Below, one piece after another: positions 9,595-37,303 of a stretch of DNA of 64,000 nucleotides. The position numbers were made by a program, and so were the translations under genes. This stretch comes from a virus, in IMG/VR virus record IMGVR_UViG_3300043446_003702, positions 1 through 64,000 of that record; one strand, 5' to 3'. Every line of letters starts with the position of its first letter. The stretch's first letter is position 1. Under the pieces are notes generated by a model. The model searched no databases. It was not told where the DNA came from and worked only from the letters and a program-made list of their open reading frames with translations.

Positions 9595-11136
9595 TGAAAT
9601 TCACAGTTGAATGGCATGACAAAATGCATCGTTGGGACGTGGTTCGTTGGGACACCACTGCGGAAGGTGTGTATACTATGTATGCTGGTACCACAGTGGA
9701 CCGGTGTGCTACACTAGATGAGGCAGAAGAAATCTGTGCATACCACACAGACATGATGAACCCTGAGTTGTGGGCAGATCATGGATGTGAATTTGATCGG
9801 GAGACAATGTAATGGCAGGCAAAGCAAAATCAATCTATCTCACAGTCACTGTCAAAGGTCAACTTCGTGCAGTGTTTCGCAAAATGTTTTTCAATGCCAG
9901 TGACTACAATGCCTACGTCAAAACTGACGAGTTCAAGGCTCAGTGGCCCACTACCGAATACGACATAATCAAAGAGGTGTACTGACATGATGCCCGCTGG
10001 ACGATATTACATTGGTGATCTGTGCTATGTCATGCACCCTGAATGGTCGGAGTGCTGTGATTTGTTCTTCCCAAGCCACCACCAGCCCCGAGGTGTTGAG
10101 GGTGAGTTTGTGCTCAAGGATGGACGTAGGTTTGCCAGTTTTAGCACAGCCTATGGCGATGGCACCTACACTTCCAACATTGGTACCGAACACTCAGTAG
10201 ACTCTGGCAGTATTGGTTGCATCCGTGCAGAAGACATTCGCGACACTGAGTACGACTCTGTAACCATTGAGCAATTGGGTGCGTTTGTGGATTTCCCTGA
10301 GCCCTTTGAAGTATCAAACGATGCTGGCATGCTGACATTTGGGCATGTGCAAATTGAAACCAATACCGATTATGATTGGGAGGAAGAATAATGTGGTCAT
10401 TAGTACTCTATACCATTGTACCTATGCAATCTTTGGAAATGCTTGGAGAGATTGGATATTATGCCGCATTCAATAAATGCGTGTATGCCCAGAATCAAGT
10501 GCAATCTAAAGTCACAGCACAAGATCCCAATGGGCTGTTACTTTGCATTAAAGATTTTAAAAACACATATGAGGCAAAAGAAAAATGACCAAAGTTGTGA
10601 TCAACACATGCCACGGTGGCTTTGGGCTCAGTGCCGAAGCCGAGCGCAAATACCGGGAACTGGCTGGCATTGCAGATGCTGATTTTCACAGCCGAAACAT
10701 ACCAAGAGACGATGCACACTTGATTGCTGTGGTTGAACTCATGGGCGAGACAGCCAACAACAGATTTTCAGAGTTGAAGATTGTGGACATACCCGACGAC
10801 GTCAACTGGTATATCGAAGAATATGACGGTAAGGAATGGGTGGCCGAACGTCACCGGACCTGGGATTGATACATGAACAAGCACAACGATGACATAGACT
10901 TGCCCGACATGCCGGTAGAGCCTGACCCACCACCACCAACTGTGGTGGTCATAGCCGAAGATTTACGCCTGGGTCCTGCTGAAGTTAAACCCTATGACCG
11001 CAATGCCTGGATCCGAGAGTTTGGTCCCCGACCGCCCACTGTGGGCATGCGAGTATTGGACTTTGTGATTGTTGGATTGTTTGTCAGCACAGCCGTGGTG
11101 ATCATCAAAGCCTGTACCTGGGCATTTTTTAGTTGA
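9591..11136 (+). CDS. run of small hypothetical early genes (9591-9812, 9812-9985, 9987-10391, 10391-10588, 10585-10869, 10873-11136)
   Basis: tightly packed, stop/start-coupled ORFs; 9812-9985 (57 aa) is absent from the ORF track. Confidence 0.65.
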
Positions 11137-11169
11137 CCATAAATAGATTTCCTGTTACAATTGCATCAC

Positions 11170-11244
11170 AGGCCTGTAGTTAAAAGGTATAACAGTGAAC
11201 TCATAATTCACCAGTTTCTGGTTCGACTCCAGACGGGCCTACCA
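11170..11244 (+). tRNA. tRNA-Ile2/Met (CAT), probably the lysidine-type AUA reader
   Basis: cloverleaf, loop CTCATAA, GGCCTGTAG 5' end typical of Ile2, encoded CCA. Confidence 0.8.
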
Positions 11245-11249
11245 TGTCA

Positions 11250-11324
11250 CTGGGGTTAGTATAATGGATAATACAGTCGGCTTCTACCCGACGAATGTGG
11301 GTTCGATTCCTGCACCCCGGACCA
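11250..11324 (+). tRNA. tRNA-Arg (TCT)
   Basis: GTCGG-CTTCTAC-CCGAC anticodon arm, TTCGATT T loop, CCA. Confidence 0.9.
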
Positions 11325-11337
11325 GTAAATACACCAT

Positions 11338-11421
11338 GCGAGTATGGGGGAATTGGTAGACCCAGTGGATTTAAAATCCACCGCTATATGCGTACCGGTT
11401 CGACTCCGGTTACTCGTACCA
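11338..11421 (+). tRNA. tRNA-Leu (TAA)
   Basis: GTGGA-TTTAAAA-TCCAC arm, long variable arm, CCA. Confidence 0.9.
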
Positions 11422-11431
11422 AAGGACAGCA

Positions 11432-12100
11432 ATGACACAAGAATGGTTCAACTGGCAAAATAAAACACTGATACAAGATCAAGTGTATGTTCTGCATGAC
11501 TTTTTAGATGCTGAAATCTATGATAAGTGCAAAAACGAAATTCGAACCCATGCACATCAATGGCACAATGAGTATGCCAACAGAATAGTGGCTGACAATG
11601 TGCGAAGTCCTGTAATTTTAGAATTGGCTGCACGTTTGTTGCCTTATCTCAACAAGGAATTCAACAACGAATTTTGTGTAACCACTGCAAAGATTTACAC
11701 AGATCTCAGTGGTAGTCAAATGTTTCCGCATTTTGATGCCAGAGATTTTCACATCAGCATGCAGTTGTACATGCCAGATATTGGTAGAGATAAATTAGGG
11801 ACACAATTTTGTTTCAATCAGCATTACAATTCACAAGTTGAAGATCAACCCGATATCTTAATGCGCACAAAAGGTCAATTTGTACCAGATGATCAATATG
11901 TTTCTCCGGTGCCGTTTCGACGAGGATTTGGTTATATCAATTACAACAACAAACTCATTAGAACTTTGCACAAAACTGAACCAGTGCCGCTGGGGTATGT
12001 GAGAGAAAGTGTGCACTTTAACTTCAACATCAAACGCGGTGACCAGTTGGGTTTGGAAAACATACACTATCACAGACTACAAGGAATAGAACTTGGATGA
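11432..12100 (+). CDS. putative 2OG-Fe(II) oxygenase
   Basis: HFD..MQLY..GTQF..TLH..R pattern. Confidence 0.55.
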   Translation: MTQEWFNWQNKTLIQDQVYVLHDFLDAEIYDKCKNEIRTHAHQWHNEYANRIVADNVRSPVILELAARLLPYLNKEFNNEFCVTTAKIYTDLSGSQMFPHFDARDFHISMQLYMPDIGRDKLGTQFCFNQHYNSQVEDQPDILMRTKGQFVPDDQYVSPVPFRRGFGYINYNNKLIRTLHKTEPVPLGYVRESVHFNFNIKRGDQLGLENIHYHRLQGIELG

Positions 12101-12109
12101 GGATCAATC

Positions 12110-12556
12110 ATGACCACCAACATTGACACACTACACGCTTGGCAAAAACACAAAGATCAACTGCACCAGACCGAGGCTTGGACGCACAACAACTTGGAAT
12201 ATGACATGAGTCAAGCCGACTGGTTCTTGGCCAAGGTGCGCGGCAGCAAAACCTATGCTCAAAACTTGTATGCTGCCATGTGCAACAATCAATTTCAAAA
12301 GCAAGATCTCTGGCTGGTGCTGAAAGATGCCACATGGTCATGCACCTGGCGCAGTGCCGGCGGCATTGTGGCCGACTTGGAAGCACAGGGCGGCGACTAC
12401 ATGGATTGGTACTGTTCGGGCATGGGCGAAGGGCTGGGCAACGGCGACGCCGATGGCACTCGTGGTTATGTGAGTGAAAGCACTGTGACAGAAGAAATTG
12501 AGGCAGATTTGGCACTCCTGGGCTGGCGTGTGATTGAAGACCCCGATGCTGATTGA
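12110..12556 (+). CDS. conserved hypothetical phage protein
   Basis: YAQNLYAAMCNN and DYMDWYCSG motifs. Confidence 0.7.
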   Translation: MTTNIDTLHAWQKHKDQLHQTEAWTHNNLEYDMSQADWFLAKVRGSKTYAQNLYAAMCNNQFQKQDLWLVLKDATWSCTWRSAGGIVADLEAQGGDYMDWYCSGMGEGLGNGDADGTRGYVSESTVTEEIEADLALLGWRVIEDPDAD

Positions 12557-12674
12557 CTTGACTCTGCGTGTGTTGTTGTGTATCGTACTCACAGTGACCT
12601 TTGTGAGTTACAGCGATCTCTCAGTAGATATTGCACAGTCATGGTTGTGTAAATAACTCAAACAGGAGATCGCT

Positions 12675-12842
12675 ATGCAACTGGTTAAATATCGCGATGC
12701 TGAGATGATCACACATACATGGTTCTATGTTGATGATCGCACACGTGCCATGGTCAGTCCGTTTTTTGAGACAGAGCAACAGGCACTGGACTGGTTTGAT
12801 CAAGTGTTTGAAGGTGAAGAAGAAGTAGTTATTGCTGTATGA
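12675..12842 (+). CDS. small hypothetical protein (55 aa)
   Basis: TAAATA, AGGAG SD, open frame to TGA 12840-12842. Confidence 0.55.
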   Translation: MQLVKYRDAEMITHTWFYVDDRTRAMVSPFFETEQQALDWFDQVFEGEEEVVIAV

Positions 12843-13138
12843 AGCCGAGAGAAACGGATTCTGGACGGGGGTGCGAATCCCCCCAGGTCCACCATAAACA
12901 TACTAACCTTTGGGTGTAGTCCGTAAGGATCAAGAGATAACTTCAAAGACCCCATATAACCAAGTTAGTATGTTTTTGATGGGCCTGCATAGTTTCGACA
13001 GGGTCAAAAGTAGCGGAGTGGACAGCACATCAGAGTAGATGTTAAAACTAAAACAACGTAAACGCAAACGACGAACTGTTCGCATTGGCAGCCTAAACAC
13101 TGCCTAGGGTAGGAAATACCTCGTAACAGAAACCACCA
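12835..13138 (+). ncRNA. ssrA: circularly permuted (two-piece) tmRNA, tag ANDELFALAA
   Basis: T arm + CAGGTCC-A-CCA (ends 12894) precedes GGGCCTG (12981); G3.U70 pair; tag ORF 13064-13096; outer ends approximate. Confidence 0.9.
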
Positions 13139-13165
13139 AATAGGCTCCCCGGAGCCTATTTCTTT
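13138..13165 (+). terminator. intrinsic terminator after the tmRNA
   Basis: AAATAGGCTCC-CC-GGAGCCTATTT-CTTT. Confidence 0.85.
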
Positions 13166-13223
13166 GCCCGTTGTTGTCAACGCATTGCCAGGTCAAGGCG
13201 TTGTATATGTACAAGGAGGCTTT

Positions 13224-13505
13224 ATGTACAAAGTCTTGATAGCCGGAGCGGTGGCACTGGCCACATTGTCAGCACAGGCACATGGTCCACACGGTCCTTA
13301 TGTGTATTACGAACATCGTCACTATGATCGTGGGTCAGATTGGATTGCACCGGCCATCTTGGGCGGCTTGGTAGTGTATGCTGCCACTAGACCCCCGGTT
13401 GTGGTGCCAGCCCCACAGCCAGTGATTGTAACACCCACTTGTGGTCCTTGGGTGGAAATTCGCAGTGCTGATGGCACAGTGACTCAAACCAGGACCTGTC
13501 AATAA
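13224..13505 (+). CDS. secreted/membrane Pro-Val-rich small protein
   Basis: AGGAGG SD, signal peptide ending AQA, hydrophobic segment. Confidence 0.6.
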   Translation: MYKVLIAGAVALATLSAQAHGPHGPYVYYEHRHYDRGSDWIAPAILGGLVVYAATRPPVVVPAPQPVIVTPTCGPWVEIRSADGTVTQTRTCQ

Positions 13506-13523
13506 TGTTAGCGAGGACAAAAC

Positions 13524-13922
13524 ATGAAACATTTGGCCATTGGCCTGTGCATGGCGATGATAGCAATTCTAAGCCAGGCAAATACGACACAGAGCCACAC
13601 GAAGATTACCGAATGGTCAGCGCGGACTGCGACCAAAAAAGGTTTGGCCATTGCGCCATCCATGATGCGTATTCCCAAACCCAAAATCTTTCGCAGCAAC
13701 CCTTTCCGGCAGGCGTACTTTAACAGTCACTGGGACGAAAACGATGACATTGAAATTGATGACGATAGCAAGATCACCGGGCCCAGACGTGAACAGTATG
13801 GTCGTGTCAAAGCCAATCCCACACCGGCCGACCCCGAAGGCGATGTCACTCCTGACATTGAGTGGCGGTTGTTTTTGATACGTCAGGCTGCTCTTTTTCG
13901 ATATCGTGCGTTACATGCCTGA
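13524..13922 (+). CDS. hypothetical protein with signal peptide
   Basis: GAGG SD; MKHLAIGLCMAMIAILSQA. Confidence 0.55.
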   Translation: MKHLAIGLCMAMIAILSQANTTQSHTKITEWSARTATKKGLAIAPSMMRIPKPKIFRSNPFRQAYFNSHWDENDDIEIDDDSKITGPRREQYGRVKANPTPADPEGDVTPDIEWRLFLIRQAALFRYRALHA

Positions 13923-13948
13923 CCGCCACTGCACCGGTAAATATCCCT

Positions 13949-14545
13949 ATGATAGTTTACATACACGGTGCGTCGGCCACGGCTGAAAGTTTCACACACA
14001 TTAGACAGTACGTTAGAGATTACATTGAAGAGCCTGACATTGCCTTGGAATATCGCAGCGAGGATGGCTTTGACCACAACCTTGCACACATGAAAGGTCA
14101 GTTGGACGACGAGGACCGACTGTTTTTTGTGAGTCACAGCCTGGGCGGCATCTATGCTCTACATTTGGCTAACTATTATCAGGCCACCACTGTGGGCGGT
14201 GTGAGTCTCAGCACACCCTATGGTGGCAGCAAACAGGCTGACTTTGCCAGGTACTTCCTGCCGTTCAATCGACTGATGAAAGACATTGGACCCATGAGTC
14301 GCCCCATGGCCGATGCACAGCGGTTACCAGCACCACCCAACTGGACTCAGGTTGTGAGCACAGTGGGACAGAGTCCTTGGATACACGAGCCCAACGATGG
14401 TGTTGTCACAATCGCCAGCATGAGATATAGGCAGGATTTTGAACTGGTGGAACTGCCCATCAATCACTATGAAGTTGTGATCAGCAACCGAGTGGTGGAC
14501 ATTGTGCTGGAAAGAATTCAACGTGTGATTGCCCAAAGAGGATGA
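13949..14545 (+). CDS. alpha/beta hydrolase (lipase-like)
   Basis: YIHGA, SHSLGG, STPYGGS, NDGVVT motifs and C-terminal His. Confidence 0.85.
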   Translation: MIVYIHGASATAESFTHIRQYVRDYIEEPDIALEYRSEDGFDHNLAHMKGQLDDEDRLFFVSHSLGGIYALHLANYYQATTVGGVSLSTPYGGSKQADFARYFLPFNRLMKDIGPMSRPMADAQRLPAPPNWTQVVSTVGQSPWIHEPNDGVVTIASMRYRQDFELVELPINHYEVVISNRVVDIVLERIQRVIAQRG

Positions 14546-14786
14546 CTCACATACAAAATTAATATACAATACACAAGAGGGAAAAACACACATGAGCAAA
14601 GGATCAAGACCCAGACCCAGCGTGGTAAGCCAACAAGAACTGGCTCAACGACACGAAGCCATCTTTGGCCAGAAGCCGCCACGAGAACCCTATGTGCCAC
14701 CACCACTGCCGCCTGAACTGGCAGGACCCGGTTCCGTTGAACGACTGTTGGGCACTGCAAAACTTCCACCTGGACGGACATAAATC

Positions 14787-15734
14787 TTGATTGACTGGCC
14801 AGTGGCACCTGCTGACGGCAAATATAGTCGTTGGTACCAGCAACTAATTGATCAGGCAAAATCACGCAAATTGGATAAAGGTGCGTACTTTGAACGTCAT
14901 CACATTGTTCCTCGAAGTTTTGGGGGATCAGATGCCGATGAAAATTTAGTGGATTTGACCGCTCGTGAACACTATATCGCGCATGCCTTGTTGTGGAAAA
15001 TGAAATTTCCTGGTGTTTATGGTAGCAAAATGTCTTTTGCATTTAACACGTTTATCAATAGAATGCGAACTAACAAAGCATTACCTAATATTACATACAA
15101 GATAAACAGTCGCATCTACCAATCATTCAAAGTGCATTATGCTGATATGCTTAGTAAACAGATGTCTGGCCAAGGCAATCATTTTTACGGTAAAACTCAC
15201 AGTGAAGAAACAAAAAAGATCATTGGTGAAAAGAGTAAACTAAAAACTTTTAAACGTGGGCCAGAACATTTTAATTACGGCAAGCCGTCATTTGTTACCC
15301 CTGAGGGCAAACAAAGACAACTGGCTGCAATCAACGCACGGTGGGCCGATCCTGACTTCAAAGAATTAATGCGACAAAAAAGGCGGGCATATAATGCCAC
15401 TCCAGAAGGGCAAGCACAAATAAAAGCCAAAGCTGATGCTCGTCGTGGAGTAAAACGTGATCCAGCAGTGATTGAAAAAATGGCCATGACCAAAAGAGGT
15501 AAAACATGGGAAGAGCTGTATACTCCAGAACAAATTGCTAGAATGCGAGCCGCAATAAAAAACAGAGTATTGTCGCCAGAAGCCAAGGCAAAAATGTGGT
15601 TTAAAGGAAAAGGAAAAGGAATTGCCAAAATAAAACATGCATGTCCACATTGTGGCAAATTGTGTGCTGGCAACATGTTGGCCAAATGGCATGGTGATAA
15701 CTGTAAATTCAAATTTCCACCCCAAAATCATTGA
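14787..15734 (+). mobile_element. free-standing HNH homing endonuclease with NUMOD3 repeats
   Basis: ERHHIVPRSFGG..NLVDLTAREHYIAH; NHFYGKTHSEETKKII; C-terminal CPHC. Confidence 0.85.
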
Positions 15735-15759
15735 CTTTCAACTCACTGTCATATATAAT
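15731..15759 (+). promoter_or_regulatory. sigma70 promoter of leader 1
   Basis: TTGACT-N17-TATAAT; ATG at about +1. Confidence 0.8.
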
Positions 15760-15764
15760 AAACT

Positions 15765-15863
15765 ATGATTACGCAATTCGCCCAACTGTCCTTTGAGATA
15801 CCCTCACATGATTATCGTGAGGCGCTGGCCTATACCTTATTCAGCGGGAGCGGTGGTACCTAA
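15765..15863 (+). CDS. putative attenuator leader peptide 1 (MITQFAQLSFEIPSHDYREALAYTLFSGSGGT)
   Basis: leaderless 32-codon ORF between promoter and terminator; absent from the ORF track. Confidence 0.7.
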   Translation: MITQFAQLSFEIPSHDYREALAYTLFSGSGGT

Positions 15864-15883
15864 TACCTAAGTACTACTCAAGC

Positions 15884-15916
15884 AAAAACCCGCTACACAG
15901 GCGGGTTTTTCTTTTT
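15884..15916 (+). terminator. intrinsic terminator / attenuator 1
   Basis: AAAAACCCGC-TACACAG-GCGGGTTTTT-CTTTTT. Confidence 0.85.
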
Positions 15917-15920
15917 GTGC

Positions 15921-15949
15921 TAGACCAATAATGGCAGAAGTGCTATACT
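15921..15949 (+). promoter_or_regulatory. possible second promoter for tRNA array 1
   Basis: TAGACC-N17-TATACT with extended TG. Confidence 0.55.
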
Positions 15950-16135
15950 AGAGGCAAGTTAGAAGACAACACAGTCGATCGAGACTAGTTGAGAGGTTCG
16001 TTAAAAAGATATCTTTCATATAGGCCTGTTCAAATTACAGGCCCTATATGTAAACACATTGCAGTGGGTTCGTAAGTATGAGTCGCATTCCAACGAGTGC
16101 CCGTGGGCTGGATGTAATGTGTTTGCATATAGAAT

Positions 16136-16211
16136 GCACGGTTCGTCTATCGGTTTAGGACACTAGCCTTTCACGTTAGTAAGACGGGTTCGATTCCCGT
16201 ACCGTGTACCA
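16136..16211 (+). tRNA. tRNA-Glu (TTC)
   Basis: cloverleaf, loop CTTTCAC, CCA. Confidence 0.9.
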
Positions 16212-16216
16212 TTTTT

Positions 16217-16302
16217 GGAGACGTGGCAGAGTGGTTGATTGCACCAGACTGTAAATCTGGCCCCTAAAAAGCGCGGTGGTTCGAATCCATCCGTCTCCAC
16301 CA
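16217..16302 (+). tRNA. tRNA-Tyr (GTA)
   Basis: loop CTGTAAA, long variable arm, CCA. Confidence 0.9.
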
Positions 16303-16312
16303 AGTTTGTTTG

Positions 16313-16457
16313 TATAGTTAAGCACCGATAAGGTATCGTGTGGGGACGCCCACACTATTCGGGTCCAAGCGGCCGGCGACGGATCCTGACATAACTGCCT
16401 CGGCTGTGACTGGGAAGCCCCCAACGTCTAAATTGGCATTCTCGGTGCTTAACTATA
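16313..16457 (+). ncRNA. unassigned structured RNA A
   Basis: perfect 16-bp closing stem 16313-16328/16442-16457 with GC-rich internal hairpins. Confidence 0.55.
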
Positions 16458-16463
16458 TGAATT

Positions 16464-16538
16464 GGCTTCATAGTTAAATGGTCATAACGCCGGCTTGTCA
16501 CGCCGGTATTGGGAGTTCGATTCTCCCTGGAGCCGCCA
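16464..16538 (+). tRNA. tRNA-Asp (GTC)
   Basis: loop TTGTCAC, G73, CCA. Confidence 0.9.
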
Positions 16539-16544
16539 AGTTTT

Positions 16545-16623
16545 GCAGACAGTGGATGGGTAGGCGCCCTGTGCGCCGCATTCTAGATTCCCGCAAAGGT
16601 TCGACTCCTTTGGTCTGCGCCCA
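16545..16623 (+). ncRNA. tRNA-like RNA with acceptor and T arm but no normal D/anticodon arm
   Basis: GCAGAC/GTCTGC stem, CAAAGG-TTCGACT-CCTTTG arm, 3' CCA. Confidence 0.6.
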
Positions 16624-16630
16624 GTTTTTT

Positions 16631-16713
16631 GCCCCGGTGGCTAGTGGAAATTGGTACACCTAATGGTTTTAGAAGCCATGCTTTTCCCGGTTCGAGTCCG
16701 GGCTGGGGCACCA
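16631..16713 (+). tRNA. tRNA-Leu (TAG), atypical
   Basis: loop TTTAGAA; extra bases around the D arm; short variable region. Confidence 0.75.
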
Positions 16714-16716
16714 AGT

Positions 16717-16931
16717 TTTGAGAGTGTCAGCAAGAGAAAGACACGCTGTGTAGGTAAGTTCGAACTACCGAAGCAGTAGAAGGTGGCGGGTTCGATGCCC
16801 GGCGGATCGGAAGATCCGTGTACATGGTGGCGTACTATCTGGTCCGGTATCCCAAGTGACGTACCGAGTCCCAGCCGGCTTTATATACTTGGGTGAATGG
16901 TGCCAATAACGATGGTGGCACAACTCTCAAA
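16717..16931 (+). ncRNA. unassigned structured RNA B
   Basis: TTTGAGAGT/ACTCTCAAA closing stem, two GTTCGA T-loop-like hairpins, CGGATC-GGAA-GATCCG hairpin. Confidence 0.55.
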
Positions 16932-16941
16932 TTCAATTCAT

Positions 16942-17016
16942 GCCCCTGTCGTTCAACGGATAGGACACCATGCTACGAACGTGGGGACGGAGGTTCGATT
17001 CCTTCCGGGGGTACCA
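16942..17016 (+). tRNA. tRNA-Arg (ACG)
   Basis: loop CTACGAA, CCA. Confidence 0.9.
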
Positions 17017-17020
17017 ACAT

Positions 17021-17095
17021 GGTGCAGTTAGTTTAGTGGTAAAACCGCGGGTTGTGATTCCGCTGTCACGAGTTCGATTCTCGTACCGCACCCCA
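17021..17095 (+). tRNA. tRNA-His (GTG)
   Basis: G-1:C73, loop TTGTGAT. Confidence 0.9.
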
Positions 17096-17098
17096 AGT

Positions 17099-17300
17099 GT
17101 AACTCAACGGCCTGTGTCAAAAACTCATTGACTATGGGCCCAACTGCCAGGGACTCTACGTATATCCACAACCGCTGACCGGGCGCGAGCCGCGTGGACT
17201 GCTAGTCACAGTCGAAGTCATGTAGGTGGAAGGAAGACAGGGCAACCTTTTTGTTGTGCTGTGTACCTTTAAACATAGGGCAGTAGGCTGTTGAGTTTAC
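17099..17300 (+). ncRNA. unassigned structured RNA C
   Basis: 13-bp closing stem 17101-17113/17285-17297, GNRA-type internal hairpins. Confidence 0.5.
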
Positions 17301-17313
17301 TAAATACACATGA

Positions 17314-17388
17314 CGCAGAGTGGAGAAGTAGTATCTCACCAGGCTCATAACCTGGGGACCGGCGGTGCGAATCCGTCCTCTGCAACCA
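17314..17388 (+). tRNA. initiator tRNA-fMet (CAT)
   Basis: C1:A72 mismatch, loop CTCATAA. Confidence 0.85.
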
Positions 17389-17402
17389 AACACGGAGTAC
17401 AC

Positions 17403-17936
17403 ATGATAGCGATTGATACTTACACTCAACCAATGACAGGCTTTGAAGACACATGCCATGCTCATTTGACGACATTTTTAACCAGCGACGGTGATGAAAA
17501 TTTGTACAATTTTTTCAAAGATTGTGTAAATCAAAATTTGATTAAAAATTTATTTCTTTGGGTACCTTATGAACTGCCTGTGATGTTAAATTGGGGGCTT
17601 ATTCGATACTATTCAGACGATTTGTCAACTGCCACCCTGGTCAAAGAAAAATTTGAGGACATGAACGCGAATTTTTCTGTAAAAAAGTTTTGGAATCAAA
17701 TGAATTTTGAATTCGCCTGTGTTGATCCCAAAGAAATCGTGTTCGATGAGGAGCCGTCAGATTCTTTTTTTCCAGTGATTGACCTAGATGGTAATGGTAT
17801 ATGGGCTTTTGACTTCCCTGTAGTTGATGATCTGACACTGCAAGGATGGCAGCCAGCCATGGAATCTCGACGGTCTTTTTTCCAAAATCTTTCCAATCAA
17901 AAAAACAAATATTTTGCAAATTATTTTGAAAAATAA
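17403..17936 (+). CDS. hypothetical protein (AT-rich)
   Basis: GGAG SD after tRNA-fMet, ATG 17403. Confidence 0.6.
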   Translation: MIAIDTYTQPMTGFEDTCHAHLTTFLTSDGDENLYNFFKDCVNQNLIKNLFLWVPYELPVMLNWGLIRYYSDDLSTATLVKEKFEDMNANFSVKKFWNQMNFEFACVDPKEIVFDEEPSDSFFPVIDLDGNGIWAFDFPVVDDLTLQGWQPAMESRRSFFQNLSNQKNKYFANYFEK

Positions 17937-17961
17937 TTTTGAAGCAAAAATTTCTGATAGG

Positions 17962-17990
17962 TTGACAACAAATGATAAATACACTATAAT
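17962..17990 (+). promoter_or_regulatory. consensus sigma70 promoter of leader 2
   Basis: TTGACA-N17-TATAAT; ATG at about +1. Confidence 0.9.
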
Positions 17991-17997
17991 AGGAACT

Positions 17998-18108
17998 ATG
18001 ATGAAACAACAATTCTGTTCAATGCTCAAGCCCATGACAACCCAGACATCGTTCTGGGTGTTGGCCAATGGCTCAGCAAACAGCATTCCAGGAGACCCGG
18101 GGTTCTGA
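17998..18108 (+). CDS. putative attenuator leader peptide 2 (MMKQQFCSMLKPMTTQTSFWVLANGSANSIPGDPGF)
   Basis: leaderless 36-codon ORF between promoter and terminator. Confidence 0.75.
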   Translation: MMKQQFCSMLKPMTTQTSFWVLANGSANSIPGDPGF

Positions 18109-18134
18109 TTAGACTATATTCGTATACCTAACAT

Positions 18135-18170
18135 GAACCCTGGAACTAAACACTCCAGGGTTTTTCATTT
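18135..18170 (+). terminator. intrinsic terminator / attenuator 2
   Basis: GAACCCTGGA-N9-TCCAGGGTTT-TTCATTT. Confidence 0.85.
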
Positions 18171-18367
18171 AGTGCAACGGCAACGCGAGCCGGTATCACT
18201 CTAAACTACAAATGTGGGCGGCCTCGAGGATGAGAAGACTGTGGCGACAACGCAGTTGGTAAAAGTCGAGCGTATTAAAGCAGATTATGTCAGTGAGGAG
18301 GCACCAAGTTGTGTGCAACGATAGTCTGCTTTAATACACACACTGGTCTCAGTGTGTCAAAATGCAT

Positions 18368-18441
18368 TCCGGTGTAGTATAATGGCAGTGCGGTGGTCTC
18401 CAAAACCACTAGTGGGAGTTCGATTCTCTCCACCGGAGCCA
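18368..18441 (+). tRNA. tRNA-Trp (CCA)
   Basis: loop CTCCAAA, CCA end. Confidence 0.9.
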
Positions 18442-18449
18442 TGAAATTT

Positions 18450-18524
18450 GGGCTGTTAGTGATAATGGGAGCACGAGGCCTTTGCACGGCTTAGGTGGGA
18501 GTTCGATTCTCCCACGGTCCACCA
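18450..18524 (+). tRNA. tRNA-Ala (TGC)
   Basis: G3.U70, loop TTTGCAC. Confidence 0.9.
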
Positions 18525-18546
18525 AACATGATATAAGTATTCACAA

Positions 18547-18636
18547 GGAACGTGGGCCGGATGGTAAGGCACGGGATTGCTAATCCCGCGGTGGTGACGA
18601 GCCGCTGATAGGGTTCGACTCCCTAACGTTCCGCCA
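18547..18636 (+). tRNA. tRNA-Ser (GCT)
   Basis: loop TTGCTAA, long variable arm. Confidence 0.9.
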
Positions 18637-18643
18637 AAGACAT

Positions 18644-18719
18644 TCCTCAGTAGCACAGCGGTAGTTGCACTTGACTGTTAATCAAGGTGTCGGTGGTTCG
18701 ATCCCACCCTGAGGAGCCA
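18644..18719 (+). tRNA. tRNA-Asn (GTT)
   Basis: loop CTGTTAA. Confidence 0.9.
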
Positions 18720-18736
18720 AACACAAAGGAAATACA

Positions 18737-18904
18737 ATGTCTAACACATTTAGAACTACAAACGATCCAATGAAACATCACAGTGGCAAGCCCAGACTGG
18801 GCCCACTGAACGTAGCACAATTGACCAAGATGTTGGAAAGTGCAAGACCAAAAAATCGTGCCAAGATTCAACGTGCAATAGACGCTAGACTCAAAAAGTC
18901 CTAA
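18737..18904 (+). CDS. small basic hypothetical protein (55 aa)
   Basis: AAGGA SD, open frame between tRNAs; absent from the ORF track. Confidence 0.6.
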   Translation: MSNTFRTTNDPMKHHSGKPRLGPLNVAQLTKMLESARPKNRAKIQRAIDARLKKS

Positions 18905-18912
18905 GCACTCAC

Positions 18913-18986
18913 GCCCTATTAGTATAATGGTATTACACCGGTTTTGTAATCCGGGTACGGCAGTTCGATTCTGTCATGGGGCACCA
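18913..18986 (+). tRNA. tRNA-Thr (TGT)
   Basis: loop TTTGTAA. Confidence 0.9.
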
Positions 18987-19039
18987 ATTTTTTTACAAAG
19001 GAGTTCTGTCATGAACAGTGACAAGAGTGGCAAACCTAT

Positions 19040-19114
19040 GGGGGTATAACTTAACGGCTAAAGTAGTGGGCTTTTAACCCATTAATCAGAGTTCGATTCT
19101 CTGTGCCCCTACCA
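19040..19114 (+). tRNA. tRNA-Lys (TTT)
   Basis: loop CTTTTAA. Confidence 0.9.
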
Positions 19115-19190
19115 TATAAAAACACATTTATGATCAGACTGGTACTCCGGCGCCGGGGGGAGACCGCCTCCACTGAGTGTGTTTCTATAT

Positions 19191-19265
19191 GGTAATGTAG
19201 CATAATGGCAGTGCACCACCTTCATACGGTGTCCAGTGAAAGTTCGACTCTTTCCATTACCGCCA
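19191..19265 (+). tRNA. elongator tRNA-Met (CAT)
   Basis: loop TTCATAC, fully paired acceptor. Confidence 0.8.
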
Positions 19266-19275
19266 AAGGAGATTT

Positions 19276-19992
19276 ATGAAAAAGGCAATTATCTTGGGTT
19301 GCAGTCATGCGCTGGGTGCAGAAATGCACAAACAACCAGGTTGGACATTGCAACCAGAATATGACAATGTTGATGCCTATGGCGCCATGAATAGTTATCC
19401 AGTGCTGTTGGCACAAGCCTTGGGCTATACACCATACAATCATGCTATATCTGGTGGCAGCAATGATGCCATGTATCGAATTTTCTGTGATCAGCTGCCA
19501 CAACTCACTGCCAGTGACATTGTGATTGCCTGCTGGACTGGAGGCAACAGAAGTGAAGTATTTTATGAATCCGAGCAGAGATGGTTGCCTATCAGTCACG
19601 GTGACACTCACACGCTTCGAATTCAATCAGACACAGTGTTACAGCAAGGCAGATCTATTCCAGAAAAAATCGCACATGCTGAGCCATTTGAACAATTTGG
19701 TCGACAGTGGTTGATATACGAAGGGCATGATCAGCGCGGTCGACTAAACAAGACAAAAAATATTTTGGCTCTGAACATGTTGGCACAGGCACACCATATA
19801 CCTGTGATCAACATTGACAGTTTTTGGCCAGTTATCGACTACGTATGGCCATCGGCTCTAAGTTGGCCTGTGTCACAAGAGTTTGTGCAGTTCTGTCAAG
19901 AACACAATTTTCCGCACACTGATTGGGGACATTATTTTCTCCCTGCTCATCAAGCATTTGCAAATTACATTTTAAAAAACATAGCCGGATAG
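19276..19992 (+). CDS. SGNH/GDSL-like hydrolase family protein
   Basis: LGCSHA, NHAISGGSN, GHYF..AH; 3' end overlaps tRNA-Ile. Confidence 0.6.
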   Translation: MKKAIILGCSHALGAEMHKQPGWTLQPEYDNVDAYGAMNSYPVLLAQALGYTPYNHAISGGSNDAMYRIFCDQLPQLTASDIVIACWTGGNRSEVFYESEQRWLPISHGDTHTLRIQSDTVLQQGRSIPEKIAHAEPFEQFGRQWLIYEGHDQRGRLNKTKNILALNMLAQAHHIPVINIDSFWPVIDYVWPSALSWPVSQEFVQFCQEHNFPHTDWGHYFLPAHQAFANYILKNIAG

Positions 19993-20056
19993 TTAAATGG
20001 TATAACGGTCGCTTGATAAGCGATTATCGCAAGTTCAATTCTTGCTCTGGCTACCA
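19983..20056 (+). tRNA. tRNA-Ile (GAT)
   Basis: loop TTGATAA. Confidence 0.9.
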
Positions 20057-20061
20057 GTCAT

Positions 20062-20136
20062 TGGGGGTTCGCCAAGTGGTAAGGCCTCGGATTTTGATTC
20101 CGACATGCATAGGTTCGAATCCTATACCCCCTGCCA
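20062..20136 (+). tRNA. tRNA-Gln (TTG)
   Basis: loop TTTTGAT, weak 1:72 pair. Confidence 0.9.
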
Positions 20137-20143
20137 AATTCCG

Positions 20144-20172
20144 TAGACATGTAGTGATACATGTTGTATAAT
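20144..20172 (+). promoter_or_regulatory. internal sigma70-like promoter before tRNA-Gly
   Basis: TAGACA-N17-TATAAT overlapping the ACATGTA-GTGA-TACATGT inverted repeat. Confidence 0.6.
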
Positions 20173-20181
20173 TACAGTATT

Positions 20182-20259
20182 GCGGGTAGACAGGTGATGG
20201 GGCCACCAGCAGCCTTCCAAGCTGAAGATCGCGGAGTTCGACTCTCCCTACCCGCTCCA
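20182..20259 (+). tRNA. tRNA-Gly (TCC), 8/4 fold
   Basis: loop CTTCCAA, U73; 8-bp acceptor and 4-bp T stem. Confidence 0.75.
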
Positions 20260-20278
20260 CTCTTTAGAAAGAACTGAC

Positions 20279-20497
20279 ATGGGGATTGAAAGTGCCGCAA
20301 CGTTTTTGATTTGTACAATTTTACTGGGCTCGGGTGCCACAGTGATTGTGGGTGTGATACTGTTGATCAACAACATGTTGCATCGTTACTGGAAAAACCT
20401 GCATTGGAACTTGCCAGAAAGTCTCAGAGCCATGCGTGATCCTTACCCATATCAGACTGTGGATCGCAGTCAAGAACCTCCTTTGGACCGGAAGTAA
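20279..20497 (+). CDS. small membrane protein
   Basis: hydrophobic N-terminal half; followed by hairpin 20486-20506. Confidence 0.55.
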   Translation: MGIESAATFLICTILLGSGATVIVGVILLINNMLHRYWKNLHWNLPESLRAMRDPYPYQTVDRSQEPPLDRK

Positions 20498-20518
20498 CTT
20501 CCGGTCTATCCTTTTTAT

Positions 20519-20597
20519 CCGAGTGTAGGAAAGTCTGGTTTAATCCGTCTGCTTTGGGAGCAGAAGATCGGGAGTTCGAATCTCTCTACTCGGACCA
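20519..20597 (+). tRNA. tRNA-Pro (TGG)
   Basis: loop TTTGGGA. Confidence 0.9.
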
Positions 20598-20602
20598 AAC
20601 AT

Positions 20603-20680
20603 GCAACGGTGGCGGAGTGGCCCAACGCATGGGATTGCAAATCCCAAAAACCGTCAGTTCGAATCTGACCCGTTGCTCCA
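20603..20680 (+). tRNA. tRNA-Cys (GCA)
   Basis: loop TTGCAAA, U73. Confidence 0.9.
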
Positions 20681-20704
20681 GAAATCAAGAAAAAATAAAG
20701 AACT

Positions 20705-21364
20705 ATGAAACTTTTAAACAACGTCTTAAGTGCGAAACAAATTGAATTATTCAAACAATACTGGGACAATAATCCCGATCAACGCTATGTAAATTGGAGA
20801 ATTGGTGATGAAGTATTAGATTATAGGTTAGAAGTCATGCATGACCCTGTGTTATGGAAAATTATCACTGATATAGTAAGTCAAGATTTTTCATCTACTG
20901 TACAAATTTGGAGTGCATTACAAAGTCAAAAATTTGCACATCACATTCATGTTGATGATTATGGTGTAGAAAAATATCCCGATATTCCAATGTACACTTA
21001 TATTTTTGCACTAGATACTGTGCCAGAATTTAAGACTATTGTGTGGAGGGAAGTTGTGAAAAGCAATGCAGACATACCAAACTATTTAAAACTTTGGAAT
21101 TTGAAGCGACACAAGTTGCCAAAAACTTCAACTATTAGCACTGAGCAAGATCTTGAACACACATATGATGAAAACGCACAGGCCTATTTGTGTGATTATT
21201 TAACATTGGATGATATTTTTGAGTATCAGGCCGGAAGTGGTGTACTGTTTAATGGTCGACAATTGCATTGTACCAGTAACTGGTTAAAATATAAAAAATT
21301 TGAAAGTCGAGAATTGTTACAAATACATGTCGTATCTCATGATTTGAAAACGTTATTGACGTAA
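20705..21364 (+). CDS. possible 2OG-Fe(II) oxygenase-like protein
   Basis: HIHVD..GVLFNGRQLHCT..R. Confidence 0.45.
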   Translation: MKLLNNVLSAKQIELFKQYWDNNPDQRYVNWRIGDEVLDYRLEVMHDPVLWKIITDIVSQDFSSTVQIWSALQSQKFAHHIHVDDYGVEKYPDIPMYTYIFALDTVPEFKTIVWREVVKSNADIPNYLKLWNLKRHKLPKTSTISTEQDLEHTYDENAQAYLCDYLTLDDIFEYQAGSGVLFNGRQLHCTSNWLKYKKFESRELLQIHVVSHDLKTLLT

Positions 21365-22527
21365 GGCTCAATAAGTTCGTAGAATTCTGGAAACGTATCT
21401 TCAAAACTCTGTCCTCGCAGTTTATCAAGGTCCTTGGTATGTTGCCAAAACTTAGGCCAGTAGGTATCGCATCCTGGCACTGTTTGCATTATAAAATTTG
21501 CAACACTGGGGTTGCGATTGGCAATAATCTTTCGCACTGATAACGGGATATGTCGTATATCATATTCCCCTGGCGAGGTCACTAAATTTAAGTTAGTTGA
21601 CAATCTATGCTTTGTTAAGTTAGTTCTAATTTTTGTTATGTCAAACACATTTATTGGACTAACTGTAATATTAATAGCCAAGTTAATGTTGGGATATTGT
21701 TGATGTATTTGTTTGAATTTTTCTAAGTTGTCAAACAACAAGTCAGCTTTGACTGGATATCTAATATATTCTAATTCTTTAATTTGATCACTATCAATGC
21801 TTAATCCAATTTGCACTGATTTAAATTTTGAAAGTATTTCTAAATATTTTGAATTAAATATTGTAATATTAGTATGTAACTGTAATGCAGTATTTTGAGA
21901 TTGTCCTGCGGCAGCAACACGTTCTAGTGCATTAAACAGCGCAGGATTCAAAAAAGGTTCGCCGCCGTAAATGTCAACATACACCATGTTGGGCAACCAT
22001 TCAACAAATGTGTCCCAAAATTCTATGTTGTCTTGATTGAAACTGTTGCGTATGTGCTCAAACGTTTGAGAATATTCAGTAGCGGTGCCAACAAAGCCTT
22101 CGTTTTTTACCGCTAGTTGGTAGGCATCTTTGTACCATCCACTACTAGTCGCTGGATTACACATACGGCATGCAAGATTACAAGTATTTCCAGGTTTAAT
22201 GATAAAAACTTGTGGTTGAGTTGTTAAATTTGGCAATGCGCCAAATTTATTGTTAAATTGTTTTCTTGGACTATTGCTGTTAGATTGTTCTAAATCAAAG
22301 CAATGACTACAGGCTGGTAGTTCTCGATCTCTATCAAGAGCGGCTGCAACCATTCGTCGTGTATGGCTATTCCATGCATCCTTGAGACTGGTGCTGTGTG
22401 CATACATAACTTCTCGAGTTTTGGTTTCAAAACTCATGTTGTTGATATTACAAACACAAAAATCGCCGTTGTTTTGTATTGCCAATGCTTTGTGCGGCAT
22501 CACGCAGTGAGTTTTTGATTGGTCCAT
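21337..22527 (-). CDS. radical SAM protein with N-terminal Cys-rich (SPASM/Twitch-like) region
   Basis: CNLACRMC and GGEPF motifs. Confidence 0.85.
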   Translation of the reverse strand: MDQSKTHCVMPHKALAIQNNGDFCVCNINNMSFETKTREVMYAHSTSLKDAWNSHTRRMVAAALDRDRELPACSHCFDLEQSNSNSPRKQFNNKFGALPNLTTQPQVFIIKPGNTCNLACRMCNPATSSGWYKDAYQLAVKNEGFVGTATEYSQTFEHIRNSFNQDNIEFWDTFVEWLPNMVYVDIYGGEPFLNPALFNALERVAAAGQSQNTALQLHTNITIFNSKYLEILSKFKSVQIGLSIDSDQIKELEYIRYPVKADLLFDNLEKFKQIHQQYPNINLAINITVSPINVFDITKIRTNLTKHRLSTNLNLVTSPGEYDIRHIPLSVRKIIANRNPSVANFIMQTVPGCDTYWPKFWQHTKDLDKLRGQSFEDTFPEFYELIEPYVNNVFKS

Positions 22528-22565
22528 GTGGACTGATATTTATATATGGAATTTTGATTTAAAAT

Positions 22566-22657
22566 GGAAGATGATGCAGGTGCGATGGTGCGCCGACTGG
22601 CCTTGAAAACCAGGTTCCGAGAAATCGGATGGGGTTCGACTCCTCCGTCTTCCGCCA
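22566..22657 (+). tRNA. tRNA-Ser (TGA), 8/4 tRNA-Sec-like fold
   Basis: loop CTTGAAA, 8-bp acceptor, 6-bp D stem, long variable arm, G73. Confidence 0.8.
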
Positions 22658-22681
22658 AATAAGTACATAGAGGAGATAAAA

Positions 22682-22843
22682 ATGAAGCCAATCCAGTTTG
22701 AAAACAAAATTACTCGAGAAAGATTCATTTGCGATGACATCAGATTCCGGCGAGTGTTTGAAGGTGTTGAGTATATCTCTGTGCATCGACCCAATGAAAC
22801 TCGTCAATTGCTCATGCGCCTAGATGCATTACAACAAATTTAA
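22682..22843 (+). CDS. small hypothetical protein (53 aa)
   Basis: GAGGAG SD; absent from the ORF track. Confidence 0.6.
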   Translation: MKPIQFENKITRERFICDDIRFRRVFEGVEYISVHRPNETRQLLMRLDALQQI

Positions 22844-22845
22844 AA

Positions 22846-22919
22846 GCCTCGTTCGTCTAATGGTAGGGCCGCGCTTTTACACAGCGCAGACGGCAGTTCG
22901 ATTCTGTCACGAGGTACCA
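22846..22919 (+). tRNA. tRNA-Val (TAC)
   Basis: loop TTTACAC. Confidence 0.9.
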
Positions 22920-22995
22920 GCCACTATAGCAAAGATGGTCTATGCACCGGACTGAAAATCCGAGGATCCTGGTTCGATACCCGGTGGTGGCACCA
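22920..22995 (+). tRNA. tRNA-Phe (GAA)
   Basis: loop CTGAAAA; abuts tRNA-Val. Confidence 0.9.
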
Positions 22996-23191
22996 AACTA
23001 CAATCCAATGCAAAATCTTTTTTCGGTGGCTTAACATCAGGTACAAACTCAGGTTTTTTACTTTGATACAGAAGATTCACCAGGAAACCACGATCTGTGG
23101 TCCAGTAGGCCGCAGGCACGTATGGCTGATGTGAAAAGTTTTGATACAAAACTTCAACTCGTAATTCATTGGATTGCATAATGTATTTACT

Positions 23192-23269
23192 GCCCCCATG
23201 GACAAATTGGCAAAGTCGCTTCTCTCAAAAGGAAGAGCATTCTCTGTTCGAATCAGAGTGGGGGTACCA
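23192..23269 (+). tRNA. tRNA-Leu (CAA), short variable arm
   Basis: loop CTCAAAA, A73. Confidence 0.85.
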
Positions 23270-23277
23270 AGTATCAA

Positions 23278-23354
23278 GCCCTGGTGGCGCAATTGGTAGA
23301 CGCACCACTTTGAGGGGGTGTAAAGTGTGAGTTCGAATCTCACCCAGGGCACCA
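23278..23354 (+). tRNA. tRNA-Leu (GAG), short variable arm
   Basis: loop TTGAGGG, A73. Confidence 0.85.
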
Positions 23355-23359
23355 CTCTA

Positions 23360-23437
23360 CTCTGTATGGCGCAGCCTGGTCAGCGCACTGGTCTGGGGGA
23401 CCAGGGGTCGCAAGTTCAAATCTTGCTACAGAGACCA
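23360..23437 (+). tRNA. tRNA-Pro (GGG)
   Basis: loop CTGGGGG. Confidence 0.9.
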
Positions 23438-23459
23438 ATGATAACTAAAGAAAGCACTT

Positions 23460-23930
23460 ATGAAAAAACTAGATCTAGCACAAGTCACAGAATTCATCCA
23501 GGCTCAGACGCCTGAAACACGCATCTACCTGGGCTGTGATTCAGAACGCATCAGAATAGACGGACGCTGGTATGCTGACTATGTGCTGGCCATTGTAGTA
23601 CACATCAATGGCAACAACGGTTGTCGAATCTTTGGCGAAGTGCAACGCGAACCTGTGTGGGATCAAAAAGTCAACAAGCCTGCCATGCGTCTCATGACCG
23701 AAGTGTACAAGGTGTCAGAACTGTACTTGCAGTTGGCTGATGTGCTGGAAGATAGACTGGTGGAAGTTCACTTGGACATCAACCCCGACGAACACTATGG
23801 TTCAAGTTGTGTGGTCAGTCAAGCCATAGGCTACATCAAAGGCACATGTAATGTCATACCTTTCGTGAAACCACACGCCTTTGCCGCAAGTTACGCTGCT
23901 GATAGATTCAAAGGCTTGCAGGCGGCATAG
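23460..23930 (+). CDS. RNase H-like YkuK/DUF458 family protein
   Basis: IYLGCDS, RLMTEV, EVHLDIN, KPHAFAASYAAD motifs. Confidence 0.75.
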   Translation: MKKLDLAQVTEFIQAQTPETRIYLGCDSERIRIDGRWYADYVLAIVVHINGNNGCRIFGEVQREPVWDQKVNKPAMRLMTEVYKVSELYLQLADVLEDRLVEVHLDINPDEHYGSSCVVSQAIGYIKGTCNVIPFVKPHAFAASYAADRFKGLQAA

Positions 23931-23936
23931 AATATT

Positions 23937-24010
23937 GCGGGATTAGTTTAATGGCAAAACGGAACCTTGCCAAGGTTCATACACCAGTTCGATTCTGGTA
24001 TTCCGCTCCA
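23937..24010 (+). tRNA. tRNA-Gly (GCC)
   Basis: loop TTGCCAA, U73. Confidence 0.9.
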
Positions 24011-24013
24011 ATT

Positions 24014-24087
24014 GCTCTTGTAGTTAAGTGGCATAACGGCTCCATGGTAAGGAGCAGTCGACAGTTCGATTCTGTACTTGAGCACCA
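24014..24087 (+). tRNA. tRNA-Thr (GGT)
   Basis: loop ATGGTAA; mismatches in the acceptor stem. Confidence 0.8.
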
Positions 24088-24162
24088 CGGCCTTTAGTTC
24101 AATGGATAGAATACCGGGCTTCGAACCCGGGGGTGGCGGTTCGATCCCGTCAGGGCCGGCCA
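24088..24162 (+). tRNA. tRNA-Arg (TCG)
   Basis: loop CTTCGAA. Confidence 0.9.
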
Positions 24163-36286: not shown

Positions 36287-37237
36287 ATGAATGAACACAC
36301 TAAAAAACTATTTGATCAAGCATTGGATCAAGCAGTGCCTGAAACATGGACCCAGTTGAGCCATGAACAAATGATCAAACTCTCCACAGTGTTCGCCGAG
36401 TTGATTGTGCGGGAATGTGCCTTGGTCATTAATAAAAAGACTGGACCAAAGTCTGCATTAGATGTATTAGAACATTTTGGAGTTGAAGAATGAACGAACG
36501 AATTAAAGAACTTGCTAAACAAACAGGATACATTTGGCATGCCAGCGGTGATCCGCAAATCTATGAATTTACTCCAGAGAAATTGAAAAAGTTCGCCGAG
36601 TTGATTGTTGCTGACTGTCTGAAACAAATCAAGGCGGGCTTGGTTGACGAAAGTGAACTGTTGTATGAACATGAAGAAACTACTGAATGTGTCAATGAAG
36701 CGTTGATGGATGCACACCACAACATCGCACTACATTTTGGATTTGCAGAACGGTTCGGAGTTGAAGAATGAAAGAAACTGGTCGCTACTATCGCTCCTCA
36801 TTTGATCAAATGCGAGAGCGTGGTTGGACTGTTATTCCTTGGGAATCAGGGCAACCCGATCAGGCACAAGTTTTAGATTGGTTGCGTAAAAATGGCTCAG
36901 GTGAGTTTTACTATTCGGCAGAAGCAAACAAACTTAACTTTAGTATTGTAATCAAAGATGCCACCGATGCTATGACATTCAGACAACATTTCGGAGTTGA
37001 AGAATGAACGAACGTATTGAGACACTGGCAAAGGCTGTTGGCTATGACATGATAAACAAGGCGGCGATGAGAGCCCTTGGATTTGATGTAGAAAAGTTCG
37101 CCGAGTTGATTGTAGGGGAATGTATGGCGTGTTCCTCCTGGGTTGGTCGGGCCAATACCACGGCCATAGAACCCATGCATACTGCTCACGCTATCAATCA
37201 GCGTATCACAGAACATTTTGAACTGACAAAAACTTGA
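36287..37237 (+). repeat. four tandem small ORFs joined by repeated GGAGTTGAAGAATGAA junctions
   Basis: junction repeats at 36471, 36754, 36985; GTTCGCCGAGTTGATTGT at 36391, 36591, 37096. Confidence 0.8.
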
Positions 37238-37303
37238 CAAGTCACTGTGATCTGCATATAATACACAATGCTGGCCTTGTCCAGTGACTACCAAGGAGAC
37301 TGT

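Follow-up and report, generated by a model that had tools for sequence, protein, structure and literature searches.

Among the leader peptides of enterobacterial operons, that of ilvGMEDA, with Ile, Val and Leu codons, and that of thr, with Thr and Ile codons, are multivalent; others of the kind precede the trp, his, leu and phe operons. In the Escherichia coli pheST attenuator, upstream of phenylalanyl-tRNA synthetase, a leader peptide senses charged transfer RNA (tRNA) through its codons. The tRNA genes of phages are commonly viewed as constitutive add-ons, which either serve codon bias or replace tRNAs destroyed by host defences. The element described here lies at positions 15731-15916 of a stretch of 64,000 nucleotides (nt), hereafter the window, which is the first 64 kilobases (kb) of the 148-kb IMG/VR viral record IMGVR_UViG_3300043446_003702 (estimated completeness 43%). 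It stands before a phage tRNA array, array 1, and is read from its sequence and that of its relatives as a putative ribosome-mediated transcription attenuator, with a probability of about 0.62. No description of leader-peptide attenuation for tRNA genes or phage tRNA arrays was found in full-text searches of the literature; such control had previously been found described only for amino-acid and synthetase genes, and this is what would be new here.

The module and the array behind it comprise the following features, where bp stands for base pairs.

15731-15759, + strand: promoter P1, TTGACT-N17-TATAAT, with 11 of 12 consensus positions; kept in all relatives, in which the DNA upstream of the -35 box differs
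15765-15863, + strand: leader open reading frame (ORF) of 32 codons, from the ATG at 15765, 5 nt past the -10 box, to the TAA at 15861-15863
15802-15822, + strand: hairpin A, CCUCAC paired with GUGAGG, with the His, Asp and Tyr codons in its loop and the Arg and Glu codons in its 3' arm
15807-15827, + strand: codon block His-Asp-Tyr-Arg-Glu-Ala-Leu, the candidate regulatory codons (CAT GAT TAT CGT GAG at 15807-15821, CTG at 15825-15827)
15823-15827, + strand: segment 1, CGCUG, paired with CAGCG at 15842-15846 in the consensus fold of full-length leaders
15843-15848, + strand: segment 2, AGCGGG, the 5' strand of the antiterminator, pairing with CCCGCT at 15889-15894 in the terminator 5' arm
15852-15878, + strand: hairpin B, which holds the stop codon and is nested inside the antiterminator; its outer pair is G-C in 22, G-U in 2 and A-U in 5 unique sequences
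15884-15916, + strand: intrinsic terminator with an 11-bp stem (15884-15910), a 5-nt loop and a T-run to 15916; present in all variants, with a freely varying loop sequence
15921-15949, + strand: promoter-like site P2, TAGACC-N17-TATACT, with 9 of 12 consensus positions plus a TG before the -10 box
15950-16135, + strand: structured spacer from P2 to the first tRNA, its first ~110 nt 80-88% identical in relatives
16136-17388, + strand: tRNA array 1, with genes for Glu, Tyr, Asp, Leu(TAG), Arg(ACG), His and then Met, and structured RNAs interspersed

A preliminary description of this locus had named P1, the 32-codon ORF, the terminator, the five consecutive codons with the additional CTG, and a second promoter-like site at 15921, and all of these are present as listed. 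The three pairings that it proposed can also form, as seen by direct reading and in folds: segment 1 with CAGCG, segment 2 with CCCGCT, and GTGGTAC (15853-15859) with GTACTAC (15871-15877). Its list of six elongator tRNAs stands as well, with anticodons Glu-TTC, Tyr-GTA, Asp-GTC, Leu-TAG, Arg-ACG and His-GTG, followed by Met-CAT. For the fourth of these, the program ARAGORN calls 'Ile-aat' at 16631-16713, which was rejected as a register error: the anticodon loop reads TT-TAG-AA and the gene aligns with a relative's tRNA-Leu(TAG), so the Leu-TAG identity is right.

In the proposed mechanism, host RNA polymerase would start at P1, at or beside the AUG, and a ribosome would translate the 32-codon leader as the polymerase advances. 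Pairing of segment 2 with the terminator 5' arm, around a nested hairpin B, would keep the terminator hairpin from forming. A ribosome that keeps pace, and is within the last ~9 codons or at the stop, would cover segment 2, so that the terminator forms and the transcript ends at about 15916, while a lagging ribosome would leave segment 2 free and transcription would continue into Glu-Tyr-Asp-Leu-Arg-His. The likeliest site of the lag would be the His, Asp, Tyr, Arg and Glu codons, in and after hairpin A. P2 would provide a basal supply of tRNAs. It is inferred that ribosome and polymerase are coupled and that ribosomes stall at the codon block; through such a device the phage probably makes more of the array tRNAs when ribosomes run slowly.

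Relatives of the module were collected with a back-translated pattern of nine block residues, which returned seven viral contigs, and with two added patterns, the terminator tail with P2 and the alternative pairing of the divergent types, which brought the collection to more than 60 distinct variants in lake viral and metagenome contigs. In all of them the module stands before an array that opens with Glu, Tyr and Asp in some order. The main group comprises 29 unique sequences, in which the conserved block begins exactly at the -35 box. The divergent types encode nearly unrelated peptides of 23-35 residues in the same module layout. Besides the promoter, the ORF, the terminator and P2, they retain an ACT-ATG-like start 5-6 nt past the -10 box and a distance of ~23 nt from stop codon to terminator. 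An exact search with the tRNA-junction pattern gave no match, and near and distant DNA searches of a cultured-phage collection matched only terminator-like fragments.

The evidence for a switch lies in the pairing between segment 2 and the terminator. Each type has, 6-12 nt ahead of its stop codon, a stretch that can pair with the 5' arm of its own terminator, and at least four sequence solutions achieve this: AGCGGG:CCCGCU in the window, GGGUCUUUG:CAAAGACCC in types B, C and E, a GGAGG-containing form, and GCGGGU:ACCCGC. Measured against dinucleotide shuffles, the solutions give p values of 0 to 0.05 each, with one exception at 0.23 and the window at 0.054, where the duplex has -11.3 kcal/mol compared with -7.4 for the shuffles; Fisher combination across six solutions gives p = 5.7e-6. 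The effect of a ribosome was modelled by masked-footprint folding, in which the transcript is taken just before synthesis of the terminator 3' arm and the ribosome footprint is hidden codon by codon. The antiterminator forms without a ribosome, or with one upstream of a boundary; with the A site beyond that point it no longer forms. The window has its boundary after the second Tyr codon (15831-15833), with the codon block directly upstream of it, and the divergent types have theirs right after a Glu-x-Asp motif. A ribosome keeping pace is thus predicted to cause termination and a lagging one to permit readthrough. Since the pairing is kept by at least four different sequences, a translation-sensitive switch between terminator and antiterminator before the tRNA array is well supported, and on this comparative evidence its existence is considered likely.

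Several features of the relatives suggest that the ORF is read. All 29 unique main-group variants, 31-36 codons long, are open in one frame between the ATG and the same TAA, and the nucleotide alignment of the leader ORFs contains gaps of 3, 3 and 9 nt only, all multiples of three. In the 170 nt past P2 of the same elements, by contrast, 3 of 23 distinct gap runs have a length divisible by three, and the majority measure 1-2 nt. The ATG and the stop codon are fixed across the more than 60 variants, and the distance from stop to terminator is 23 nt in nearly all. The leader ORF is therefore under frame constraint and appears to be translated. As the ATG lies 5 nt past the P1 -10 box there is no room for a Shine-Dalgarno site, and translation presumably starts in a leaderless fashion. 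In the main group many synonymous sites of the ORF are invariant, so that the RNA itself is constrained too, and central residues of the peptide are also conserved.

One alternative reading is a non-coding regulatory RNA, namely a ~150-nt small RNA or a ligand- or tRNA-binding switch resembling a T-box, with the ORF left untranslated. The folding z-score of the leader RNA (-3.35), the covarying hairpins, the missing Shine-Dalgarno site and the transcript of ~150 nt from promoter to terminator would all suit such an RNA. It would not account for length changes in multiples of three within the ORF when those next door are mostly of 1-2 nt, nor for the fixed ATG and stop, and no Rfam family, T-box included, matches the module at an expectation value (E) up to 1; the T-box model RF00230 likewise has no match within 10000-25500 at E up to 1. 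A non-coding element is accordingly thought highly improbable. Hairpin A shows perfect covariation, with an A-U pair in 22 and a G-C pair in 6 unique sequences and none mixed. All extra-codon insertions in the main-group alignment fall into its loop, and it is a candidate pause or sensor hairpin.

The same kind of module occurs once more in the viral record, before a second array:

17962-18170, + strand: sister module, leader 2, before array 2, with a perfect promoter, a 36-codon ORF and a terminator

The antiterminator of leader 2 is 9-10 bp long, shows compensatory changes among variants (UUC/GAA versus UCC/GGA) and yields p values against shuffles from 0 of 1000 shuffles to 0.03; in masked folds its boundary lies after Asn-Ser-Ile. 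No promoter was found between the leader 2 terminator and array 2, either in a promoter scan or by reading the sequence, so that readthrough seems to be needed for array 2. Across the full 148 kb of the record, a near-consensus promoter followed by an ATG 4-8 nt later, a short ORF and a strong terminator occurs at 2 loci only, both before tRNA arrays.

These observations also bear on a different explanation, in which the module is an early gene of the usual kind, coding for a 32-residue micropeptide and closed by a terminator of its own; transcription of the tRNAs would start at P2, and the location in front of the array would be a coincidence. The conserved frame, the strong promoter and strong terminator, and the central residues conserved in the main group would agree with such a gene, as would the conservation of P2, which is kept in relatives retrieved by BLAST without P2 as a requirement. 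However, the peptide is almost wholly different between types, whereas promoter, spacing, stop position and terminator stay constant; the invariant synonymous sites indicate constraint on the RNA, and a micropeptide gives no reason for segment 2 to track the terminator arm. Neither the promoter scan nor reading of the sequence shows a promoter between the leader 2 terminator and array 2, the only two modules in 148 kb both stand before arrays, and searches of Pfam and PHROG with the 32-residue peptide give no family at E up to 1. A micropeptide gene is thus deemed improbable. Under the attenuator reading P2, a conserved extended -10 promoter-like site, would supply basal expression of array 1.

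The second part of the attenuator reading concerns the codons. Random 31-codon ORFs with the amino-acid usage of the phage contain a run of at least five array-cognate codons in 4.1% of cases, and in 0.4% with five different amino acids; shuffling the real leader gives 3.3%. On the sequence of the window alone the match between codon block and array is therefore suggestive and not decisive. In the relatives, Asp, Tyr and Glu codons are grouped just before the boundary in all leader types. The type B leader lacks exactly the His and Arg codons of the main type, and the type B array lacks tRNA-Arg(ACG) and tRNA-His. Among closely related contigs, L205 has the block T-C-E-R-E-Y-D and tRNAs for Glu, Tyr, Asp, Asp and Cys, while its sisters L157 and L209 have the block T-S-E-R-E-D-D and tRNAs for Glu, Asp and Asp, with neither Tyr nor Cys. 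Leu in the block goes with Leu tRNAs in L120, L155, L198 and L204, and the sister L199 has neither. Of the codons inserted into the loop of hairpin A in the main-group alignment, 10 of 13 are array-cognate, which local duplication explains in part. When arrays were shuffled among 20 lineage points, 109 cognate codons were observed against 94.0 expected (p = 2e-5; p = 9e-4 in a collapsed set of 16 points), and agreement in presence or absence of Tyr, Cys, Leu, His and Arg gave p = 1.7e-4 (p = 0.018 in the collapsed set).

A rival reading is a switch that is translation-dependent but reports the general speed of translation, and not how well the array's own tRNAs are supplied. Asp, Tyr and Glu would then be kept for the sake of hairpin A and the neighbouring structure, and the match with the array would reflect descent and chance. 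The codon block does lie inside the covarying hairpin A, the invariant synonymous sites around it point to constraint on the RNA, and the predicted result is the same wherever upstream of the boundary the ribosome stalls. A sensor of general speed gives no account, on the other hand, of why the two codons missing from type B are exactly His and Arg, why L205 differs from L157 and L209 at Cys and Tyr in leader and array alike, or why inserted loop codons are mostly array-cognate and the permutation holds in the collapsed set. It is regarded as unlikely, although some of the points that follow lend it weight.

A number of observations weigh against the attenuator reading, and the first group concerns the codon match. 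Its permutation p values are inflated because leader and array are inherited together; the conservative version is p = 0.018. Arg occurs in the block without tRNA-Arg in 9 of 20 lineage points, Cys without its cognate in 8 of 20, and the Leu codon CTG is fixed with or without tRNA-Leu(TAG). Three contigs have changed arrays and unchanged leaders: L142 has lost the Tyr, Arg and His tRNAs, L160 has gained Leu(TAA), and the array of L184 is much longer than that of L174. With an automatic 8-codon sensor window the per-lineage p values range from 0.006 to 1, which is modest and depends on the definition of the window. The block contains one codon per amino acid, as opposed to the runs of classical attenuators. 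The correspondence between codons and array that the preliminary description expected thus survives in part across relatives, in the retained Asp, Tyr and Glu and in some sisters that change together, but often fails for Arg and Cys, and fails for the three unchanged leaders. Its view that the two leaders partition amino acids as the arrays do is borne out by the leader 1 block and not by the entire peptide, in which 14 of 31 codons are cognate to array 2 and 10 of 31 to array 1. Given the unmatched Arg and Cys codons, the unchanged leaders and the shared ancestry, tuning of the leader codons to the array is rated, if the switch exists, at slightly less than an even chance.

The second group concerns the RNA and its setting. 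The antiterminator of the window is just 6 bp long, with the borderline p value given above. The classic 1:2, 2:3 and 3:4 layout that had been proposed holds for the competition between 2:3 and 3:4, which is kept by different sequence pairs. The 1:2 pairing is weak: it has 5 bp, is invariant and is absent from the minimum-energy fold before the terminator, where it loses to 2:3. The untranslated state is thereby predicted to read through and not to terminate, unlike in trp. The idea that a ribosome stalled on His-Asp-Tyr-Arg-Glu covers strand 1 and allows antitermination agrees with the masked folds in so far as segment 2 is left free. P2 could make array 1 independent of the terminator altogether. 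The module is absent from the more distant relatives G009 and G001 and from the cultured Cronobacter phage GAP32, which have promoters or genes directly before their tRNAs, so that it is specific to the clade of the window phage. Finally, a 398-residue ORF at 37268, considered as a precedent for leaderless translation, was rejected, as an AAGGAG site precedes an ATG at 37305 and the Pfam match of the ORF begins at residue 19; the loss of this example counts against the attenuator as well. The surrounding stretch, 37234-37310 of the window, has a perfect sigma-70-type promoter with an ATG 5 nt past the -10 box, and the aminotransferase gene there truly starts at 37305 behind the AAGGAG.

The source of the DNA is a giant freshwater phage with relatives in lake viral and metagenome contigs. 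The major head protein shows 66% identity to its counterpart in Pseudomonas phage PA5oct and 62% to those of Rak2-like jumbo phages. Between 11 and 24 kb the window carries 29 tRNA genes and a permuted transfer-messenger RNA (tmRNA). The latter, at 12794-13187, is of betaproteobacterial type with the tag ANDELFALAA and is kept upstream of the leader in relatives; its type hints at a betaproteobacterial host. Just upstream of the module, the ORF at 14787-15734 encodes an HNH/NUMOD3 homing endonuclease, whose stop codon overlaps the -35 box of P1. Since the upstream DNA differs in relatives, the endonuclease gene was inserted at the edge of the module.

The arrays contain further RNAs of their own. 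A structured stretch of ~245 nt at 16711-16955, between tRNA-Leu and tRNA-Arg, is 78% identical to L104:15200-15441 and looks like a conserved RNA; in L104, a complete relative of 374 kb, the matching stretch adjoins a different tRNA (Trp). Directly after tRNA-Asp, at 16545-16623, the window has an odd tRNA-like element, followed by Leu(TAG). An amber-reading tRNA with anticodon CTA (called Pyl by ARAGORN) is present in L135 (4544-4622), L146 and L123 (4704-4780); it lies directly after tRNA-Asp in L135 and L146 and upstream of the leader module in L123. GOLLD RNA (RF02032, 193-213 bits) with an embedded tRNA occurs inside the arrays of relatives (L142:3485-3949, L176:5745-6204, L138:5356-5822 and L137:9451-9914) and was not found in the window between 10 and 25.5 kb.

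Past the leader 2 terminator, the stretch 18171-18367 is kept in all leader-2 variants and ends, immediately ahead of the first tRNA, in a long stem and a small hairpin; G001 has a similar structure in front of an array. A possible third gate is located at 20144-20680. A promoter with 11 of 12 consensus positions is followed there by a tRNA-Gly(UCC)-like gene missed by ARAGORN (20182-20255) and by an ORF of 72 codons that ends in a Pro-rich tail. A terminator at 20484-20508 has the stop codon of this ORF in its loop, and tRNA-Pro and tRNA-Cys come next.

If array 1 is indeed under attenuation, viral tRNA supply would be set by how fast the codons read by those same tRNAs are decoded. Attenuation of the trp and his type would then extend to tRNA genes and to leaderless messages, with a sensor of about 190 nt, and the division of this clade's arrays into blocks with separate promoters and terminators would find an explanation. 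The module would also serve as a sequence signature in searches for similar switches among other phages. A bolder idea, considered quite unlikely, is that phage tRNA arrays are feedback loops, in which a leaderless test peptide gates every array, with codons fitted to its tRNAs and re-tuned as tRNA genes come and go, and which may also serve as an alarm for host defence. The sensed set (His, Asp and Tyr, which share GUN anticodons, together with Arg and Glu) overlaps the known targets of anticodon nucleases, and the switch could therefore boost replacement tRNAs when such a defence depletes them.

Compared with known systems, the module shares with T-box riboswitches (RF00230) a decision between terminator and antiterminator that would report tRNA status, as well as a codon-like triplet in a hairpin loop. 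T-boxes, however, bind uncharged tRNA directly and are untranslated, whereas the phage module is frame-constrained and matches no T-box model. The theory of leader-peptide attenuators has been set out (PMC1183508). With the leaders of amino-acid operons the module has in common a short ORF by the promoter, an intrinsic terminator and an antiterminator that excludes this terminator by engaging its 5' arm; in both, a stalled ribosome would leave segment 2 free, and the stop codon is placed so that a finishing ribosome covers it. The differences are that those leaders regulate biosynthetic enzymes and the phage module would regulate tRNA genes; that its ORF is apparently leaderless and has mostly single codons for five or six amino acids instead of runs; and that its 1:2 pairing is weak, with readthrough predicted if untranslated, and a second promoter lies past its terminator. 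The pheST attenuator resembles it in being leader-peptide attenuation that acts on the translation apparatus itself, but controls a synthetase, relies on a run of Phe codons and is cellular, while the phage module is viral. The ilv and thr leaders are closest to the module in logic, and pheST is closest in target.

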